64,000 bases of DNA, taken from the NCBI GenBank assembly GCA_045105515.1, contig JBGCDR010000036.1:1-64000 (forward strand). Direction: 5' to 3'. This document shows, in pieces, positions 39,001 to 60,000 of the stretch. The position numbers were made by a program. Position 1 is the first letter of the stretch. The number at the start of each line of letters is the position of its first letter. The stretch is from Oligoflexales bacterium (lineage in GTDB: Bacteria; Bdellovibrionota_B; Oligoflexia; Oligoflexales; Bog-1112).

Positions 39001-42000
39001 TTCCATGTAAGAGTTCAAGTAAGCCCTCTTCCCACTCTACTTGTCCATTGAATACAATTAAAATATCACGTTCCGGAAGAGATAAAGCCTTCAATGCCTC
39101 TCTCTTATGTTCTTTATCGCGCATCTCTCTGTGTTGAATCCAGCAAGGCCAGGTATGAATTTTTTCTTCAGATATCCCCTCTGTTATCAGGGTCGTTTTG
39201 GCTGCTTTACTTTGCACAATAAAGCCATCCGCTGCATCCGTAACTTCGTTACGAATGCTTCGTATCCTTTGGACGTCATCAGCTGGGAAAATAGTAAGAT
39301 TATCTATGATAACCAATAAATGAAATCTAAATCGCAATTTTGCTCTTACTGCTTGAAATGCATAGATTCCTAAACGCTCTTTAATAATTACAGTATCAAA
39401 TTTTTCAAGAACTTTTTCTAGTCCAGGTAGAAAAGTTGTATCTTCATCATGATCAGGTAAGGGAATACATTTAAGGTCTTTAAAAAAGCTGTTTTTTAGC
39501 AAAAAACCAATGATAGACTCAGAGCTTATAACTGATATCTCAAAACTATTCTTTAGCAACTGTAGTTGATCTATTTCTTCAGTAGAAGGCAATGTTCCAT
39601 AAACAAAAGCAATATTAGATATCTCAGATTTAGCCTGACTCATAGAATTCTCCAACAGATCCTAGATGGATCGGGCGAAAGTGTTTTGGTTTTGAGATTG
39701 AGAACGATATTTAGAAATCCTAGACTTTTCCTTTTTTATTTTTCCAAGTTGATCTGCGTACCTTTTTTTGTACTTTTTCAATAACATACTAATTTGCATT
39801 TCTTGAGATTCGATCTGTTCCCACATCATTCTCGCAGTCTCTGACTTATAGTACTCACCAAGATTTTCATGCGTAAGGCTGTCAGCGGCTCGGTAGTTAA
39901 GAAATGCTGCTTTTCTATTACGCAATTCTATAGAAGCTTTTTCCCAATTATTAAGCTCAAGTTGTTCAATCGCAGCTTTTCCCCGCGCTATGTAAAATTG
40001 TAAAGCAGTTTCTAATTGCTTTAAGAAATTATCCATATAAAAAAAACCACGAAATGATCGGTTTTCTAAGTTCTTTCTATATTTTAGGAAATACTCAGGT
40101 TGCTGTCAAAGTGCTTAAATTCAGAATATTCCATAAAACTCTGAAAGTATGAACATTAATTGAACTGAGTCATGTTGATTTGACATTATAAAAGGAAGCA
40201 TTTACCTAGGTAATAAATGTAGAATGATTATCTAAAGAAACGTGACCTTTGGCTGAGGTGTGAGAGGACCTTGTACCTTGATATTTACTTTCCCCTTTGT
40301 TTCTCTTTGAGCTAATGCATCAAAAATAATTCCAAACTGTTCTTGTAGGGGCGCAGCTAACTCGATATTCAGACTAAAATCAATGGTCGAGCGCATAAGT
40401 TGTGGTTTTTGAGTTACTTTCCCAGATATGTCAACCATAAGATCTTGGGAAGTAAAGCCTGACTTTTTTGAAATTGTGAAGACACCGTTTTTCAGTTTGG
40501 AATCGATAAGAGCTTTGGTGAATACTTGATCTGGGATTGGAAGGTTTGGATTTAAGCTTTTTAGGACAGTGTTTTGTAGTTCTACCACAGCAGTTCCTTC
40601 AGAGCTTTTAAGATCGCCTGAGTCGATACTTAGATCAATATCTGCATCTAACTGTCCATCCACGTCGACACTCTCAAGCCATGGTTTTAGCATTAGATTT
40701 ACTCCAGGTGCCTGAGCTTGCCTATTCAAGGCAAAATCCACCAACTGGCCGAAGAGAAACTTTCTCGATTCCATATATATGTTTGAAGGCATATAGATAC
40801 CCTTGATTATATCCAGAATACTGAGCGCTACCTCACAATCTAAATGCCCATTCTTGGAATCCTCCAATGATAAGTCCACTCTTGCTTTGCCGAGGAAAAA
40901 AGAAAGGAAGCTTAAGCTGACCACTGCAGACTTGAACCTGAGTTGATAGTCTGTGCTAGCTACCTTAATCTCCTTTCCCTTAAACCCTAATGGGAAACTT
41001 GGGCCTAGCTCGCCAATCTCAAGCGAAAGTCCTGTCGCTTCGGAGGCCTTTAAGATTGCTGTCTCTTTTAAAACCTCATAGGGGAATGTTAGATAAAGGA
41101 AAAAAATAAAACTACTTATGGCTAAAACTATATAGGCTATCAATTTGCCAAAATTTTTCATATCCTACCTTTTTTAACGTGTCACCTTATAGCCTCGGAC
41201 TAGTACATCTACATCAAAGTAAAGTTTATTACCGTAAATCCCTGTGATCTTCAAATTTTGCACACGCAAATAGTGGTTGGCCTTTTCAATATCTACCAAA
41301 AAGTTTAACAAGCGAGGGATGGAGACCTTAGCTAGCTTTAAATCTACATGTACTTCTTGCATTCTTGCTGACAGCGGGTTTTGTGGATCCATTTCAGGTT
41401 GTCGATCAGAAATGCTTTTCAATGGAATTTTTGACTGGCGAGAAAGTCGTTCAAAGAAAGGTTTAAAAGTGATGCTTCTTGTCCGGCTTTTAACTTTGTC
41501 GATAAGTTTATCAAATCTAGCACCTTCCCTAGCATCCTCATATGATAGGCTCTTCAATTCATTTAGCGCATTGAAAGTTAGGTTTAGTTCATCTTTTAGC
41601 GCTTTTACCTGGTAAAAGTAAATAAAAACAGCAGCAAGAATAAAGGTTGATATAAAACCAACTATGATTGCTAAGAGGCCATTGCGATAGCCAGGATCAA
41701 GCTTGTAGAAACTATCCATTACAAATTCTAGACGCTCATTGTTTACGCCCAGAATTTTTTCTTTGATTATTTTAAGATAGGAGTCTAACCTTTCTTTTAT
41801 ATCTGTAATAGCACTCATGAAAAAACCTACAAGGATTCTCTGGATAGTCCAGGGTTATAGTCTGCCTCAACCACAGCAACAATGATTTCTGTTCCTGGTT
41901 TTGAATCAGACGATTTTTCGTTTATCTCAGCAAGACTAGAAATTGATTTTAAGGACTGCTCAAATTTCGCAATAGTATCATAAGAATCAGCTTCGACTCT

Positions 42001-57000: not shown

Positions 57001-60000
57001 CTGTGGTGAGAAGCTTACGTCTAAAGTCAGAGGACATCGTAATGGCGGCACCCTGGCGCTCAAAACCTTCTTCTTTGTAAGTTTCAGGTGGAGGTTCGGT
57101 AGCATATATTTTCTTGGAAGCAGGTTTTTTAGAGCCGGAAGATTTCTTGCGGCGTTTACTTACTAGCTGCTTTCTCTCGAGCTCGATATATTCCCTATGG
57201 TCCCCACGGTCTATGATCACTTTTTCCCGATGGATTTCTATGATTCTTGCTTTTTGAGCAAGGAGATCTCCTACAAAGAAGCTATTCTGGTTGCGCTTAG
57301 AAGTATCTTCTATAAGAGCAATTCCAGAGTAAGGGTCTCCTCCATATATGGTTCCAAGTAACTTGAGTGGGAGAGTGGATTTAATCGCTTTTGTTCCAGA
57401 GTAAACAGGTTGTTCTTCAGAAGATTCAAGCATATCTTCTTCACCGGTTTTACCTTCTTTATTGAAAAGATTGCGATTGACGATTTCGTCTATTCCTTGC
57501 TTTCCGATGCTTGGTGTTGGTTTTTGAATGGAAGCTACATTCCTGGCCTTGGGAACGATTTTAAGATCACTTTTTGAAGGAAATAATAGGTAGTTGGCAA
57601 TAAGGCTAGCGCCTGTAGCCCCTAAAAAGCCAATGGATACAGCCCCAAAAATTCCCTTCCAAGGGAGTTTTTTCGCCTTATCAAGTTCTATCAGTATGGC
57701 GTTGAGGTTAAGCATAGCTTGTCCTTGAATTAGGTTGCCATCCACACTCTGTGGCTGCCAGTTTATCTTTTGGCATTTTTCTTGAGCAGCTTTTGCCCTT
57801 CTTTGCTTTCCAGTAATTGCTTAATTCGGTTTGCCGCCTCATCATTGGTTGCAAAGCTGTCATTAAAGCAAAGAGATGAATGCTCAAATCCTTCGAGTCT
57901 TTCTTTTAATTGACTTGTCAGGCGATCCATCAATAGCTCTTCTCTTTCTTTCATATTTCCAACATTGGCTATATCGGATAGAAGCGGACGTTTCTTCAGC
58001 TCTTCAGGGTGAGATGCAAAGCGTTTAGCTATAGCACTTGGAGAAACCTGCAGCCACACGGTCACCCCTAGGTCTTCAATCAGATCTAAGTTTTGATCAG
58101 CCTGCATGGTACCCCCGCCAAGAGAAATGACTTGGCTTACGGCTGACTTAATGGATGAAAGTGCCTCAGTTTCCTTTTTCCTAAAATAGTCTTCGCCGTG
58201 ATCCTTGAATATATTCTTGATGGATTTTTTTTCCGATTTTTCTATCCAGTCATCTAAATCGAGATAGCCGAAGCCCAACCGCCGAGCAAGTTGCTTGCCT
58301 ATGGCTGTTTTGCCGCTTCCACAAATACCTGTTAATATGATGTTTTTTAGATTTTTTGGTAATCTTTCGGACTTTTCTTTGCCATATAATATCATTTTGC
58401 TTTCTTAATCTGCTAAGACCTCGGCATAATTGGCCAGAGGATAAGAAGTTGTTCCACTCGCTCATCGACGGGAGCATCAAAAAAAGCCCCGATTACATTT
58501 TAACCCAGCTTGGCTAAAAGGAAGATAAGAGCTCCCCAATCCAGCCTTATATTCGATATTGGTTTGAATGAGAATAAATATTTCTGCTTTAGTGTAACAA
58601 GGGCGGCTAGCAAAGGAGCAGGTAGCACCATGTTGATAAAAGAAACAAAACTCAAAGATCGTATTGAATGGACTATTGACGATCCAAAAAATGGCAACTC
58701 CTTAGGAATGAGGATGTATGATCGATTCCATGAGTTATTGACTAGTTTGGAGAAAGAATGCGAAAGAAGTATTCACGGTTCCCATGATGATGCACCGACC
58801 ACACGTTTGCTTGTGATTAAAGCAAATTATGACGGTAGCCAAGCGCAGCCCATTTGGGTCGCTGGTGGTAACCTTAAGGAGCTTGCCTCCTTGAATCAGG
58901 CTGAAGCTAGAAACTATATCAAGAATTATTCTATGCTATGCCGGAGGCTGCTAAACTTGCCTATTCCCGTACTTTTTGCCATGGATGGTCAAGTTATCGG
59001 TGGGGGAGTTGAGCTTGCTTTGTTTGGTGATCTCCGCTTCGCTACAGCTTCAACAACTTTTTCTTTCAAACAGCTTAGGGTTGGCCTTGCTTTAGGCTAT
59101 GGTAGTTCCAATCGTTTGACACAGCTGATTGGTCCTTCGAGTGCTATGGATTATTTGCTCCTACAAAAAGTCATTGGAGCTAAGGAATTGTTGGCAAAAG
59201 GTCTTATTCAGAAAGAGCTTTCAAGTGTTGGTGAGCTTGATGAGGCGATTGCAAACTTTAGTGCAAATCTTTCTCAGCTAGAACCACTAGCGGTTGCTAT
59301 GCAAAAGCGCATGCTAAATCGTGCTTTTTTATCTTTAAACTCTCAGGTTGAGCAAGATCTTGATGACTTTAGTAAGCTCTGGAAAAACCCAAGTCATTTG
59401 AAGTTTCTTGACCACTTTTTAAAAGGTGAGAGCAATGAACCAAGATGATTTGATCGTCCTTTCAACAGGTAAAATCTCTTTGAAGGATTCCGATCCTAAT
59501 AGTTTTTACTTCTATTCCGTAAGTTCAGAGCAATCTTTAGAGTCTGACTTTAGCCTGTCTAGTTATCTAAAGGTAGTTTGGTCCGAAGGCTTTAATAAGA
59601 GGTGTTCTTATCAGTGTTTTTATAAAGGGGTTAAACAAAAACTTGAAGTGAAGGCTAGTAGCTCTTTTGCTTTGTTTGACTTAACTTTTTTGGATGAAGG
59701 CTTAAAACTTTTGGCCTATGTAAATTGTCCTGAGAAGCAACCTGTCTCTTTCATGGATATTCAAGGTTATAAAAATTTGCTTATTCTTCCATTGGTTGGC
59801 TTAATAAATCGACAATGGAGAGATGGTTTCTGTGGGCATGTTATTCAGGGAGGTCTGGTAAGTTCCATGGTGCCTGCTGGTCCATTCCAAAGTTTAAGTT
59901 TTCCATACAAGAATTTAAACTTTCAGCCAGACCCTCAAGATAGCTGGAAAATAAAGGACTTAATGCAGCACTTTTCTGGCCCTGAATATTTGCGTCTTTC

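Follow-up and report, generated by a model that had tools for sequence, protein, structure and literature searches.

The window analyzed here, a stretch of 64,000 nt (contig C36:1-64000, JBGCDR010000036.1, in which all coordinates below are positions), carries a type II secretion system (T2SS) operon in which GspC and GspD are each encoded twice. The genome, that of an uncultured member of the Oligoflexales, also encodes proteins of eukaryotic type. This raises the question whether such proteins could leave the cell through this machinery and reach a eukaryotic host, and whether the doubled components are linked to such an export. Genome-wide statements are based on searching all six frames of the assembly (6,286,444 bases, 461 contigs) for protein families.

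A Complete T2SS Operon With Doubled GspC and GspD

Pfam and NCBIfam profiles confirmed the survey's finding of a Gsp-type T2SS with two GspC and two GspD, encoded by an intact operon at 40232-57745 on the minus strand. The first GspC (gspC_a, 56729..57745; the start codon is either at 57745 or at 57715) combines an HR domain with a PDZ domain, scores 44.2 bits with PF11356 (T2SSC, cut-off 27) and 143.8 bits with NF041515 (GspC_delta), and has an ortholog at the same place in all 11 operons examined. The second one (gspC_b, 55729..56724) reaches 37.9 and 136.1 bits with the same two models and is 26% identical to gspC_a (E 3e-22). The extra secretin, gspD_short (53639..55669, 676 aa), contains the Pfam domains N0, Secretin_N and Secretin and matches TIGR02517 with 365.9 bits (cut-off 351). 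It is followed by the operon secretin gspD_long (51012..53402, 796 aa, 454.1 bits), and both are 44% identical over 640 aligned amino acids.

The secretion ATPase gspE (49193..51019) has an MshEN-type N-terminal domain and matches PF00437, PF05157 and TIGR02533 (644.9 bits, cut-off 630), and the inner-membrane platform protein gspF (47927..49177) reaches 187.7 bits with PF00482 and 409.6 bits with TIGR02120, slightly below the cut-off of 424. The major pseudopilin gspG (47396..47899; PF08334; TIGR01710 100.2 bits, cut-off 88.85) precedes a gspH-like minor pseudopilin (46484..47305) with an N_methyl motif and a weak TIGR01708 match. The pseudopilin at the GspI position (45760..46554) has no family match; its N-terminus contains the prepilin-type motif ...EASFTLLETVIALGLMV, and the gene is kept in 10 of the 11 operons, with the loci of G044 and G064 reaching a contig end before or near it. 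Two further minor pseudopilins are gspJ (44959..45717; PF11612 29.5 bits, cut-off 28, plus N_methyl) and gspK (43594..44949; PF21687 49.3 bits; NF037980 E 6.6e-27). The gspL equivalent (41827..43491) is a fusion of PilM-like actin-fold and PilN-like domains, supported by PF11104 (PilM_2, 106.6 bits) and, under the cut-off of 22.8, by PF05137 (PilN, 20.1 bits). The adjacent assembly-platform gene, gspM/PilO-like (41174..41818, 214 aa), belongs to no sequence family; its AlphaFold model (mean pLDDT 81) retrieved PilO as best Foldseek match (3jc8_Oa, E 1.7e-6; 2rjz, E 3.8e-4), followed by the PulM C-terminal domain and EpsM, so that a PilO/PulM/EpsM-like fold is predicted. A gspN of the Leptospira type (40232..41161; TIGR04411 118.2 bits, cut-off 50) closes the operon. 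Downstream of it, two conserved genes on the same strand (37781..40036) encode a 124-aa ORF and a glycosyltransferase with TPR (Pfam Glycos_transf_1 and TPR; about 620 aa); the same pair is found 3' of gspN in four operons outside the family (L050, L052, L053, L054), counting only non-family operons whose retrieved locus extended that far.

A single prepilin peptidase is encoded outside of the operon, which is the genome's only Gsp-type T2SS, complete and chromosomal. Three clear secretins were identified in the assembly, the two GspD proteins and one on contig C60 that adjoins pilD.

Only the Additional Secretin Is Restricted to the Family

The survey had treated the doubling of GspC and GspD as one feature; a comparison with relatives separates the two. 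The GspC pair is present in 11/11 operons spanning five families of the order, and also in the sister order of the class, where the genomes lack NTT and UCH. It is ancestral for the class and not tied to eukaryote-directed biology.

The second secretin shows a different distribution. It adjoins the first in 15/15 other genomes of the family (one copy is broken in G078), and no adjacent second secretin was among the matches listed from 65 genomes of the other families of the order. At the level of operons, gspD_short was found in 6/6 from the family and in 0/5 from outside. Other Oligoflexia, in five other families, share the gene order aroK-gspC-gspC-gspD-E-F-G-H-I-J-K-L-M-N, but have a single long GspD of 800-980 aa instead of a short and a long one, and neither NTT nor UCH was found in the samples searched. 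In a quick tree, the single GspD found in other families clusters with gspD_long, and the gspD_short sequences lie on long branches. Thus, gspD_long is the ancestral secretin of the operon, and gspD_short appears, on sequence comparison, to be a fast-evolving protein restricted to the family.

Eukaryote-Like Proteins and Translocases Are Family Traits

Eight eukaryote-type families were searched in the whole assembly, which yielded two Cyclin_N proteins, six IBR ORFs, five Copine loci (three with a stop or divided between frames), one C2 match, six UCH proteins, one genuine Ras/Roc match, one IPK and one HSF. A second Ras/Roc match, starting with MAKIRVYELARELKM, presumably resembles IF-2. For these eight families the eukaryote-like proteins are genuine, and the contigs that carry them share the genome's own composition. 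Mis-binning of eukaryotic DNA, or noise in the annotation, is an extremely improbable source of them. Several of the genes lie on short contigs of lower GC, and the broken copine loci would fit noise as well; however, the GC distribution of the contigs is unimodal (0.32-0.42), some genes are located on typical contigs of 16-37 kb (C429, C391, C88, C451, C173), the ORFs have no introns and start with bacterial-type signal peptides, and orthologs are present in 12/15 other genomes of the family.

The seven ATP/ADP translocases (TLC) reported previously are in part corroborated: several are present, but the count is six full-length genes plus two weak or partial matches. The six paralogs are predicted transporters of the Chlamydia type (Npt1), and the best NTT shows 51-62% identity to those of Chlamydiota (Parachlamydiales, Simkania, Waddlia, Chlamydia). 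TLC was detected in 15/15 other family genomes and in 0/65 genomes that represent the remaining 15 families of the order, and for UCH the corresponding numbers are 12/15 and 0/65. As this split is the same as that of the short GspD, we consider both as family traits, and the pattern is not peculiar to a single genome, since translocases, UCH and short GspD are spread through the family. The co-occurrence of all three may go back to one event at the base of the clade and would then represent one observation, not fifteen.

Signal Peptides and the Search for Injection Systems

The assertion that most eukaryote-like proteins bear signals holds true for the eight families searched. According to the crude rule used before (an uncharged hydrophobic 10-mer with KD>=2.0 within the first 32 aa), here with any start codon within the first 60 codons permitted for all genes, 17 of 20 eukaryote-like proteins have a signal, while the figure for all genes is 2325 of 5398 (odds ratio 7.5, p 1.5e-4). 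Under a stricter rule, the counts were 16/20 versus 1763/5398 (odds ratio 8.3, p 1.8e-5); both rules are home-made, the 20 proteins come from few paralogous families and the background amounts to 33-43%. Within the window, the crude rule picked 0/15 Pfam-named cytoplasmic proteins and 8/9 exported or membrane proteins. By eye, signals were recognized in 20/21 eukaryote-like proteins of the genome, for example in the Ras-like (MTKFLLFLGLILFCTRAKA), C2 (MKLGKIISAGLVSLAMTTAAMA) and HSF-like (MIKKIIKMILFIALMFNINCFA) proteins.

Judged by their N-termini, the eukaryote-type proteins of relatives likewise appear to start with Sec or lipoprotein signals: these were visible by eye in 14 of the 16 evaluable UCH and cyclin ORFs, many with a Cys directly behind the hydrophobic stretch, and, for three other genera, in 14/15 IBR and Copine ORFs by eye and 8/15 by the crude rule. 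In at least nine further family genomes, the orthologs have kept their signals. UCH, RBR, cyclin, HSF DNA-binding and Ras domains are not known to have a substrate in the bacterial periplasm.

The reported lack of a T6SS and of a non-flagellar T3SS was borne out by the search of the 461-contig assembly. VipB/TssC was not found, contractile-sheath matches lie within the phage modules of prophages, and there is no sign of an injectisome, as the only FHIPEP protein is an FlhA-type export gate. With an assembly that is 90.9% complete and has 4.8% contamination, a dedicated injection system (T4BSS, T3SS, T6SS or eCIS) might lie in the unassembled 9%, and the signals would then be irrelevant to delivery. 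We regard this as very unlikely, given the search results and the conservation of the signals on orthologs; substrates of T3SS, T4SS and T6SS normally have no cleavable Sec signals, which also counts against a hidden system.

A Possible Export Route via Sec and T2SS

At the N-terminus of nearly all eukaryote-like proteins there is either a Sec signal (type I) or a lipobox-like one (type II), and we therefore infer a two-step route. Sec would take the proteins across the inner membrane, after which the T2SS would carry them out of the periplasm, or they would be exposed at the outer membrane, or released from it, as lipoproteins. They would enter the host cytosol, because the bacterium would sit in the cytosol or in a leaky vacuole. 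Three acquisitions would have come together in the clade: ATP/ADP translocases of the chlamydial type, a variable set of proteins of eukaryotic origin (deubiquitinases, RBR-like ligases, cyclins, copines, a Ras-like GTPase, IPK and an HSF-like protein) and a rapidly diverging second secretin inserted in an otherwise conserved T2SS operon. Export by Sec and subsequently by T2SS is plausible, and gspD_short may serve the eukaryote-like cargoes, with the T2SS as their presumed outer-membrane route; as T2SS substrates are not recognizable from sequence, the evidence that ties the operon to the exported proteins is circumstantial.

It is conceivable, but rather unlikely, that the T2SS plays no part in bringing this Sec-exported arsenal to the host and secretes ordinary hydrolases, as in other Oligoflexales. 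The proteins would then act as lipoproteins of the outer membrane or cell surface, or travel in outer-membrane vesicles that the host takes up or that fuse with it. Several signals are indeed lipoprotein-like, with a Cys behind the hydrophobic stretch (...FSAC, ...LTSC, ...TLSC, ...NLAC) in UCH proteins of many relatives and in some of this genome, and such proteins could use Lol, surface display or vesicles. Furthermore, the operon minus gspD_short recurs throughout the order, even in families that lack NTT and UCH. However, most signals of this genome look type I with A-x-A-like ends, and a T2SS-free route leaves the family-specific extra secretin without explanation. Pullulanase, a classic T2SS substrate, is itself a lipoprotein, and a lipobox is therefore compatible with the T2SS. 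For the reading as a whole, a host-exploiting clade at the family level of the Oligoflexales that exports a eukaryote-directed arsenal by Sec and T2SS, we see the case as evenly balanced. Of the survey's interpretation, the eukaryote-like proteins, their signals and the NTTs are retained, but not the joint doubling of GspC and GspD, and the pattern extends to the family.

Lifestyle and Host

There is good support for a parasitic or predatory life in association with eukaryotes. The lifestyle is probably biphasic, with a motile stage followed by growth within a protist or alga or in tight attachment to one; we infer both that the bacterium is intracellular and what its host is. The genome is large (6.3 Mb) and retains PurH, a caa3 oxidase and the FlhA-type flagellar export gate, and thus it does not belong to a reduced obligate endosymbiont and strict dependence on a host is unlikely. 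The signal for the diatom host proposed earlier comes from the HSF-like protein: its nearest Atlas clusters are diatom HSFs (score 0.85, rated by the tool as no more than a lead) and all four matches are from diatoms. The cyclin gave no host signal, and its nearest clusters spread over animals, plants and diatoms. We treat a diatom host, which the HSF-like sequence suggests, as a lead only.

It is also possible, though improbable in our view, that the organism is not an algal endoparasite, but an extracellular or epibiotic predator, or a grazing-resistant survivor in phagosomes like Legionella, swallowed by phagotrophic protists, with the diatom-like HSF as a mere trace of gene transfer. The large genome with PurH, respiration and flagellar gate would suit such a life, as would the scattered cyclin matches, the closest NTT relatives from amoeba-associated Chlamydiota, Legionella and Francisellaceae, and the finding that the DNA was detected only in three runs, which belong to one study and carry the label 'plant metagenome'. 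On the other hand, NTTs depend on host nucleotides reaching the inner membrane of the bacterium, a cell outside the host would have to add a step that moves cyclins, ligases and a DNA-binding protein through the host membrane, and the HSF matches are exclusively diatom. In addition, FD111, a pest from the same order that was cultured in passage, is described as entering Nannochloropsis cells and reproducing within them (PMC12865303).

The system can be compared with better known ones; our literature search found nothing that links Oligoflexales to NTTs, eukaryote-like proteins or T2SS. In Legionella, the bulk of eukaryote-like effectors has no Sec signal and is delivered by Dot/Icm, whereas nearly all tested eukaryote-like proteins bear signals here. 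Chlamydiae are obligate and reduced and deliver most effectors via T3SS, and the Sec-dependent protease CPAF of Chlamydia is exported by T2SS. The Lsp system of Legionella pneumophila is likewise a Gsp-type T2SS with Sec-dependent substrates in a protist-growing bacterium, and it is reported that eukaryotic-like proteins are secreted and that some substrates reach the host cytosol (PMC5478897, PMC6617341). In contrast to Lsp, two GspC and two GspD are combined here in one operon with platform proteins of the PilM/N/O type. The protist parasites TM6/Dependentiae are described as having ATP/ADP translocases and the T2SS as conserved secretion machinery, with two gspD in all genomes (PMC4776705). 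These genomes are small, metabolically poor and without pilQ, and the authors suggest that one gspD substitutes for it (PMC4776705); the paper does not use the term 'signal peptide'. In contrast, the genome studied here has 6.3 Mb, a third secretin beside pilD, PurH and respiration. Taken together, our findings suggest that this member of the Oligoflexales manipulates its eukaryotic hosts by ordinary secretion instead of an injection machine.

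The type II secretion operon

The assembly comprises 6,286,444 bases in 461 contigs with a GC content of 38.3% and is 90.9% complete and 4.8% contaminated. The window corresponds to C36:1-64000, and the coordinates of the survey's finding apply to it as they stand. The T2SS genes form a single tightly packed operon on the minus strand, running from position 57745 down to 40232 of the window. According to Pfam and NCBIfam it starts with two GspC genes (gspC_a, 56729-57745, and gspC_b, 55729-56724), a short GspD of 676 aa (53639-55669), a long GspD of 796 aa (51012-53402), GspE, GspF and GspG, followed by a GspH-like pseudopilin, a pseudopilin recognizable by its prepilin motif only, GspJ, GspK, a fusion of the PilM+PilN type at the position of GspL, an ORF of 214 aa and a Leptospira-type GspN. 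Both GspD proteins contain N0, Secretin_N and Secretin domains (Pfam) and exceed the TIGR02517 cut-off of 351.35 with 454.1 and 365.9 bits. GspE reaches 644.9 bits with TIGR02533 (cut-off 630.25), and GspF 187.7 bits with PF00482 and 409.6 bits with TIGR02120, the latter slightly below the cut-off of 424. Among the pseudopilins, G (TIGR01710), J (PF11612) and K (PF21687) are above cut-off, H has an N_methyl and a weak GspH match, and I has the prepilin motif without a family match. Both GspC proteins match PF11356 above cut-off, a PDZ domain being present in addition, and with 143.8 and 136.1 bits the pair stays under the NF041515 cut-off of 150.

Neither Pfam nor NCBIfam gave a GspL or GspM family match in the operon, and the place of GspL is taken by the fusion of PilM_2 and PilN. 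A structure model of the 214-aa ORF, built from nine orthologs (mean pLDDT 81), has PilO, PulM and EpsM as best structural matches, which makes it a probable platform protein of the GspM/PilO type. The fusion and the 214-aa protein would be the functional equivalent of GspL/GspM in a T4P-like form. The prepilin peptidase is encoded outside the operon by one PF01478 gene (C60:42726-43052), and such a gene is present in all 16 genomes of the family, a family-level clade of the order Oligoflexales that includes the genome studied here. With the operon genes, the probable platform protein and this peptidase, the machine appears complete. Its family matches (GspC_delta, GspN_Lepto) point to a T2SS of the "delta/Leptospira" flavour, which is predicted to secrete folded proteins, exported by Sec or Tat, across the outer membrane.

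Most genes of the operon abut or overlap, and a gap of 236 bases (window 53403-53638) lies between the two gspD genes. A comparable gap, about 216 bases long, occurs in the genus mate G040 (L044:12130-12345) and in none of the other relatives; the gap may hold an internal promoter. The remaining window is ordinary chromosome with genes for TyrRS, HU, L24, a caa3 cytochrome oxidase with CtaG, DsbD, YchF and others. Positions 1-12000 have a lower GC content (0.35-0.38 vs. 0.40-0.44 further on) and hold several ORFs without a family match, some of them signal-bearing (e.g., 5604-6572 and 1802-2374), as well as an RRM_1 RNA-binding protein (2568-2915). Next to DsbD lies the gene for a 511-aa patatin-like phospholipase (14951-16486, minus strand), which has no signal by our home-made rules; several intracellular bacteria use enzymes of this type as effectors. 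Furthermore, there is a gene for a cysteine dioxygenase type I (CDO_I) at 28295-28834 on the plus strand, a mainly eukaryotic family that is also known in bacteria.

The short secretin is the family-specific component

The survey's finding had treated the doubling of GspC and GspD as one peculiarity of this T2SS. Both pairs are indeed present, with 44% identity over 640 residues between the two GspD and 26% between the two GspC proteins, but they do not belong together. We compared the operons of six other family genomes and of five genomes from four other families of the order, using the window proteins as queries. The gene order aroK-gspC_a-gspC_b-gspD-E-F-G-H-I-J-K-L-M-N is common to all 11 operons, both GspC genes occur in each of them, and an adjacent GspC pair is also found in the sister order (GspC_delta model, 61 genomes of the class). 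Therefore, the GspC pair is ancient, a class-wide trait unrelated to the biology that the survey had proposed. In contrast, the short GspD of 630-690 aa between gspC_b and the long gspD is present in 6/6 family operons and in 0/5 of the others. A search of 81 genomes detected two separate side-by-side secretin ORFs in all 15 other family genomes, in one of which (G078) one of the two is in pieces with a stop. No such arrangement was seen among the matches listed for the 65 genomes of other families, where paired secretin matches either share a single long ORF or are spread over different contigs.

In a quick ML tree, six of the seven short GspD copies group together (SH-aLRT 86) on very long branches, while the copy of G036, another family member, is unplaced; the long copies fall together with the one GspD that other families have. 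The likely, though not proven, origin of the short GspD is a duplication that happened once, at the base of the family, after which the new copy diverged fast. What deserves attention in this T2SS is the short GspD rather than the GspC pair.

Eukaryote-like proteins and nucleotide transporters

The genome-wide claims on protein families were checked by six-frame family searches of the assembly. The seven ATP/ADP translocases that had been counted before turned out to be six full-length TLC genes and two weak or partial matches to PF03219. The six genes score 388-677 bits, cover about 480 of the 491 profile positions and have 6-10 hydrophobic segments each by a home-made hydropathy rule. The best of them (C74:14248-15699) shows 51-62% identity to NTTs of Chlamydiota, and an NTT alignment search of related loci (L068-L146) returned mostly Chlamydiota. 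Similar sequences also come from a few Legionella, Francisellaceae and Gammaproteobacteria MAGs, again with 51-62% identity, which suggests that this NTT gene may have been exchanged among protist-associated bacteria. All six are predicted nucleotide transporters, and by similarity to the chlamydial NTTs they would exchange ATP and ADP.

The eukaryote-like domains that the survey had listed were recovered as well: two Cyclin_N proteins, six IBR (RBR-ligase domain) ORFs, of which four combine ankyrin repeats with IBR and one IBR with UCH (ubiquitin hydrolase), Copine at five loci, and one protein each for C2, Ras/Roc, IPK and the HSF type. UCH was found six times. A second Ras match, with the N-terminus MAKIRVYELARELKM, is presumably IF-2-like. 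Cyclin_N, IBR, UCH, Copine, C2, Ras/Roc, IPK and HSF are all above the curated Pfam cut-off, and 14 control genomes gave no match above cut-off for Cyclin_N, IBR, UCH, Copine, C2 and HSF, whereas the Ras and IPK models do match there. The cyclin on contig C41 has a two-box cyclin fold and only eukaryotic neighbours in the Atlas. Some of these genes lie on contigs of 16-37 kb. In GC content and tetranucleotide make-up the assembly forms one unimodal cloud, and the contigs that carry these genes fall within it, so that mis-binned eukaryotic DNA is a very unlikely source.

Three copine loci look damaged (C416:2900-4800, C201:1-1400 and C415:121-486). The first consists of two tandem copine genes, each with a switch of the reading frame part-way, and the matches on C201 and C415 contain a TAG and a TAA, respectively. 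Pseudogenes are one possible explanation, errors in assembling a paralog family another.

Among the other families of the order, 0/65 genomes have TLC and 0/65 have UCH, vs. 15/15 and 12/15 of the other family genomes, respectively. Counting the genome studied here, Cyclin_N occurs in 3/16, IBR in 6/16 and Copine in 3/16 family genomes, and the eukaryote-like arsenal is patchy within the family. The clade with the eukaryote-type proteins and translocases is the same clade that has the extra, fast-evolving secretin inside its operon; as a single clade, this co-occurrence of short GspD, NTT and UCH counts as at most one evolutionary event. Most relatives have genomes of 1.8-3.5 Mb, and the two genomes of the genus studied here are large (4.6 and 6.3 Mb). 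The 3.1-Mb relative G056 has nine IBR matches (L150-L157). Behind the signal, several of these ORFs have an N-terminal region in common (…QQQPEN…AL…), and this suggests that signal-bearing RBR-like proteins have recently multiplied there as paralogs.

Export signals on the eukaryote-like proteins

We applied two home-made rules to a crude gene call of 5,510 genes, of which 5,398 were left after ORFs open at a contig 5' end had been dropped: the crude rule of the survey and a stricter one that asks for a cleavage motif or Cys behind a hydrophobic stretch and allows no other membrane span. Any start codon within the first 60 codons was allowed for every gene, so that the proteins of interest were not favoured. 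In the window, the crude rule accepted 0/15 Pfam-named cytoplasmic and 8/9 exported or membrane proteins, and the stricter rule 1/15 and 5/9. The enrichment of export signals described by the survey was reproduced with the crude rule (17 of 20 eukaryote-like proteins vs. 2325 of 5398 genes; odds ratio 7.5, p 1.5e-4) and with the stricter rule (16/20 vs. 1763/5398; odds ratio 8.3, p 1.8e-5). Two caveats are that the 20 proteins group into a small number of paralog families and that the background rate is high. By eye, 20 of 21 eukaryote-like proteins have a signal, leaving out three proteins cut by contig ends; the exception is the Copine on C201. As judged by eye, the N-termini are of the textbook kind: the C2 protein starts with MKLGKIISAGLVSLAMTTAAMA, followed by QNY, the Ras-like protein with MTKFLLFLGLILFCTRAKA, followed by ISE, immediately ahead of the Ras G domain, and the HSF-like protein with MIKKIIKMILFIALMFNINCFA, followed by SES, ahead of the HSF domain.

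The same holds for the relatives. Eighteen of their UCH and cyclin ORFs were cut out, of which two are truncated by contig ends, and a signal is visible by eye in 14 of the remaining 16; in three other genera, 8/15 IBR and Copine ORFs pass the crude rule and 14/15 seem to have a signal by eye. The export signal on eukaryote-type domains is therefore conserved across genera, and this conservation would be hard to explain unless export matters for function. In many of the UCH and cyclin ORFs a Cys directly follows the hydrophobic stretch (…FSAC, …LTSC, …TLSC, …IDSC), as in lipoproteins. Such lipobox-like signals make surface display or vesicles a real alternative to the T2SS. For folded periplasmic proteins, the T2SS of the window is the one dedicated route that we found in the genome.

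Two runs of small genes, nearly all signal-bearing, adjoin a prophage (C442:22664-28144) and the HSF-like gene (C267:685-4967), and may be islands of further secreted proteins.

Other secretion systems

Three clear secretins were detected in the genome, namely the two GspD proteins and one on C60, the contig of the prepilin peptidase. The survey had reported neither a non-flagellar T3SS nor a T6SS, in agreement with our assembly search, in which a sole FHIPEP protein (FlhA-type export gate) was found and VipB/TssC, the T6SS sheath, was not. Phage_sheath_1 has three matches, on C442, C206 and, weakly, on C399. The first belongs to a myovirus-type prophage (C442:1-15000) with terminase, portal, major head, sheath and baseplate genes, the second to another phage tail module (C206:1-9661) with sheath, tube, tape measure and baseplate hub, and the weak match lies among short ORFs on a 3.3-kb contig. 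As the sheaths on C442 and C206 sit among phage genes, a contractile injection system was rejected as delivery route.

Life style and host

The survey's finding was read as an endoparasite of diatoms that releases its effectors via Sec and T2SS. The observation behind it is confirmed. This reading is partly supported, and the pattern is better described as a trait of the family, not one peculiar to this genome. Genome reduction with loss of nucleotide biosynthesis and motility, the mark of Chlamydia, Rickettsia and TM6, was not found here. This genome and 9/15 other family genomes have PurH (PF01808), vs. 55/65 genomes of the other families, so there is no uniform loss that would support an obligate dependence. 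With 6.29 Mb, PurH, FlhA and the caa3 oxidase encoded in the window, the organism is not a reduced obligate endosymbiont, and a biphasic, Bdellovibrio-like life is more likely.

For the diatom as host, the HSF-like ORF offers a lead: in the Atlas, the three feature clusters nearest to it and one match by structure are diatom HSFs, at a score (0.85) that the tool counts as no more than a lead. It concerns one protein, and since diatoms have very many HSFs, a nearest-match search is biased toward them. The cyclin gave no host signal, with animal, plant and diatom clusters nearest in the Atlas. Public runs holding DNA of this genome number only three, all from one study labelled "plant metagenome", which is possibly the source itself; no RNA run is listed. 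They thus tell us nothing about expression and little about habitat.

A possible route into the host cell

No partner in the bacterial periplasm is known for a UCH, an RBR-type ligase, a cyclin, a Ras-like GTPase or an HSF DNA-binding domain; these proteins would have to act in a eukaryotic cell. To judge from their domain types, they would be effectors delivered into a host. Owing to their cleavable signal, they would first cross the inner membrane by Sec and could then leave the periplasm through the T2SS, in which the short secretin may serve them. NTTs need host nucleotides at the bacterial envelope. All this would fit a bacterium that, for some phase of its life cycle, dwells within a eukaryotic cell, or in a leaky vacuole, and secretes straight into it.

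Comparable cases are on record. The Lsp T2SS of Legionella is reported to secrete at least 25 proteins, eukaryotic-like ones included, some of which reach the host cytosol (PMC6617341, PMC5478897), and for TM6/Dependentiae, ATP/ADP translocases are described together with a T2SS and, in every genome, two copies of gspD (PMC4776705). Within the order, the pest FD111 reportedly multiplies within Nannochloropsis (PMC12865303), and in Aiptasia the abundance of Oligoflexales was reported to track algal symbiont density in a study based on 16S only (PMC10701089). The present case is set apart in that nearly all eukaryote-mimicking proteins tested here bear Sec or lipoprotein signals, that this signal-bearing set goes with a family-specific second operon secretin, and that the phylum is known for predation on bacteria. 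We found no literature linking Oligoflexales or Oligoflexia to eukaryotic-like proteins or NTTs; an overlap with the FD111 genome paper is possible.

Our most far-reaching reading, to which we give slim chances as a whole, is that the family moved from bacterial prey to eukaryotic hosts and evolved a means of manipulating them without an injection machine. All eukaryote-derived effectors (cyclins, RBR ligases, deubiquitinases, Ras, copines and an HSF-like DNA binder) would be made as Sec or lipoprotein precursors and released into the host cytoplasm via a T2SS with a second, rapidly evolving and cargo-dedicated secretin, and the genus studied here, whose arsenal is the largest, would be a parasite of diatoms or other stramenopile algae. 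If true, this would reveal a new, genome-rich lineage of eukaryote parasites within a phylum known to prey on bacteria, and a large eukaryote-mimicking effector set that could be delivered by a Sec plus T2SS (or lipoprotein) route without T3SS, T4SS or T6SS. Effector searches in uncultured bacteria, which as a rule discard proteins that carry a signal peptide, would change. The NTT, the signal-bearing deubiquitinase and the second operon secretin would serve as markers for algal or protist parasites in metagenomes, and some relatives already trouble algal cultures as pests. With its fast evolution and its restriction to the family, the second secretin makes a candidate for a T2SS channel specialised in certain cargo.
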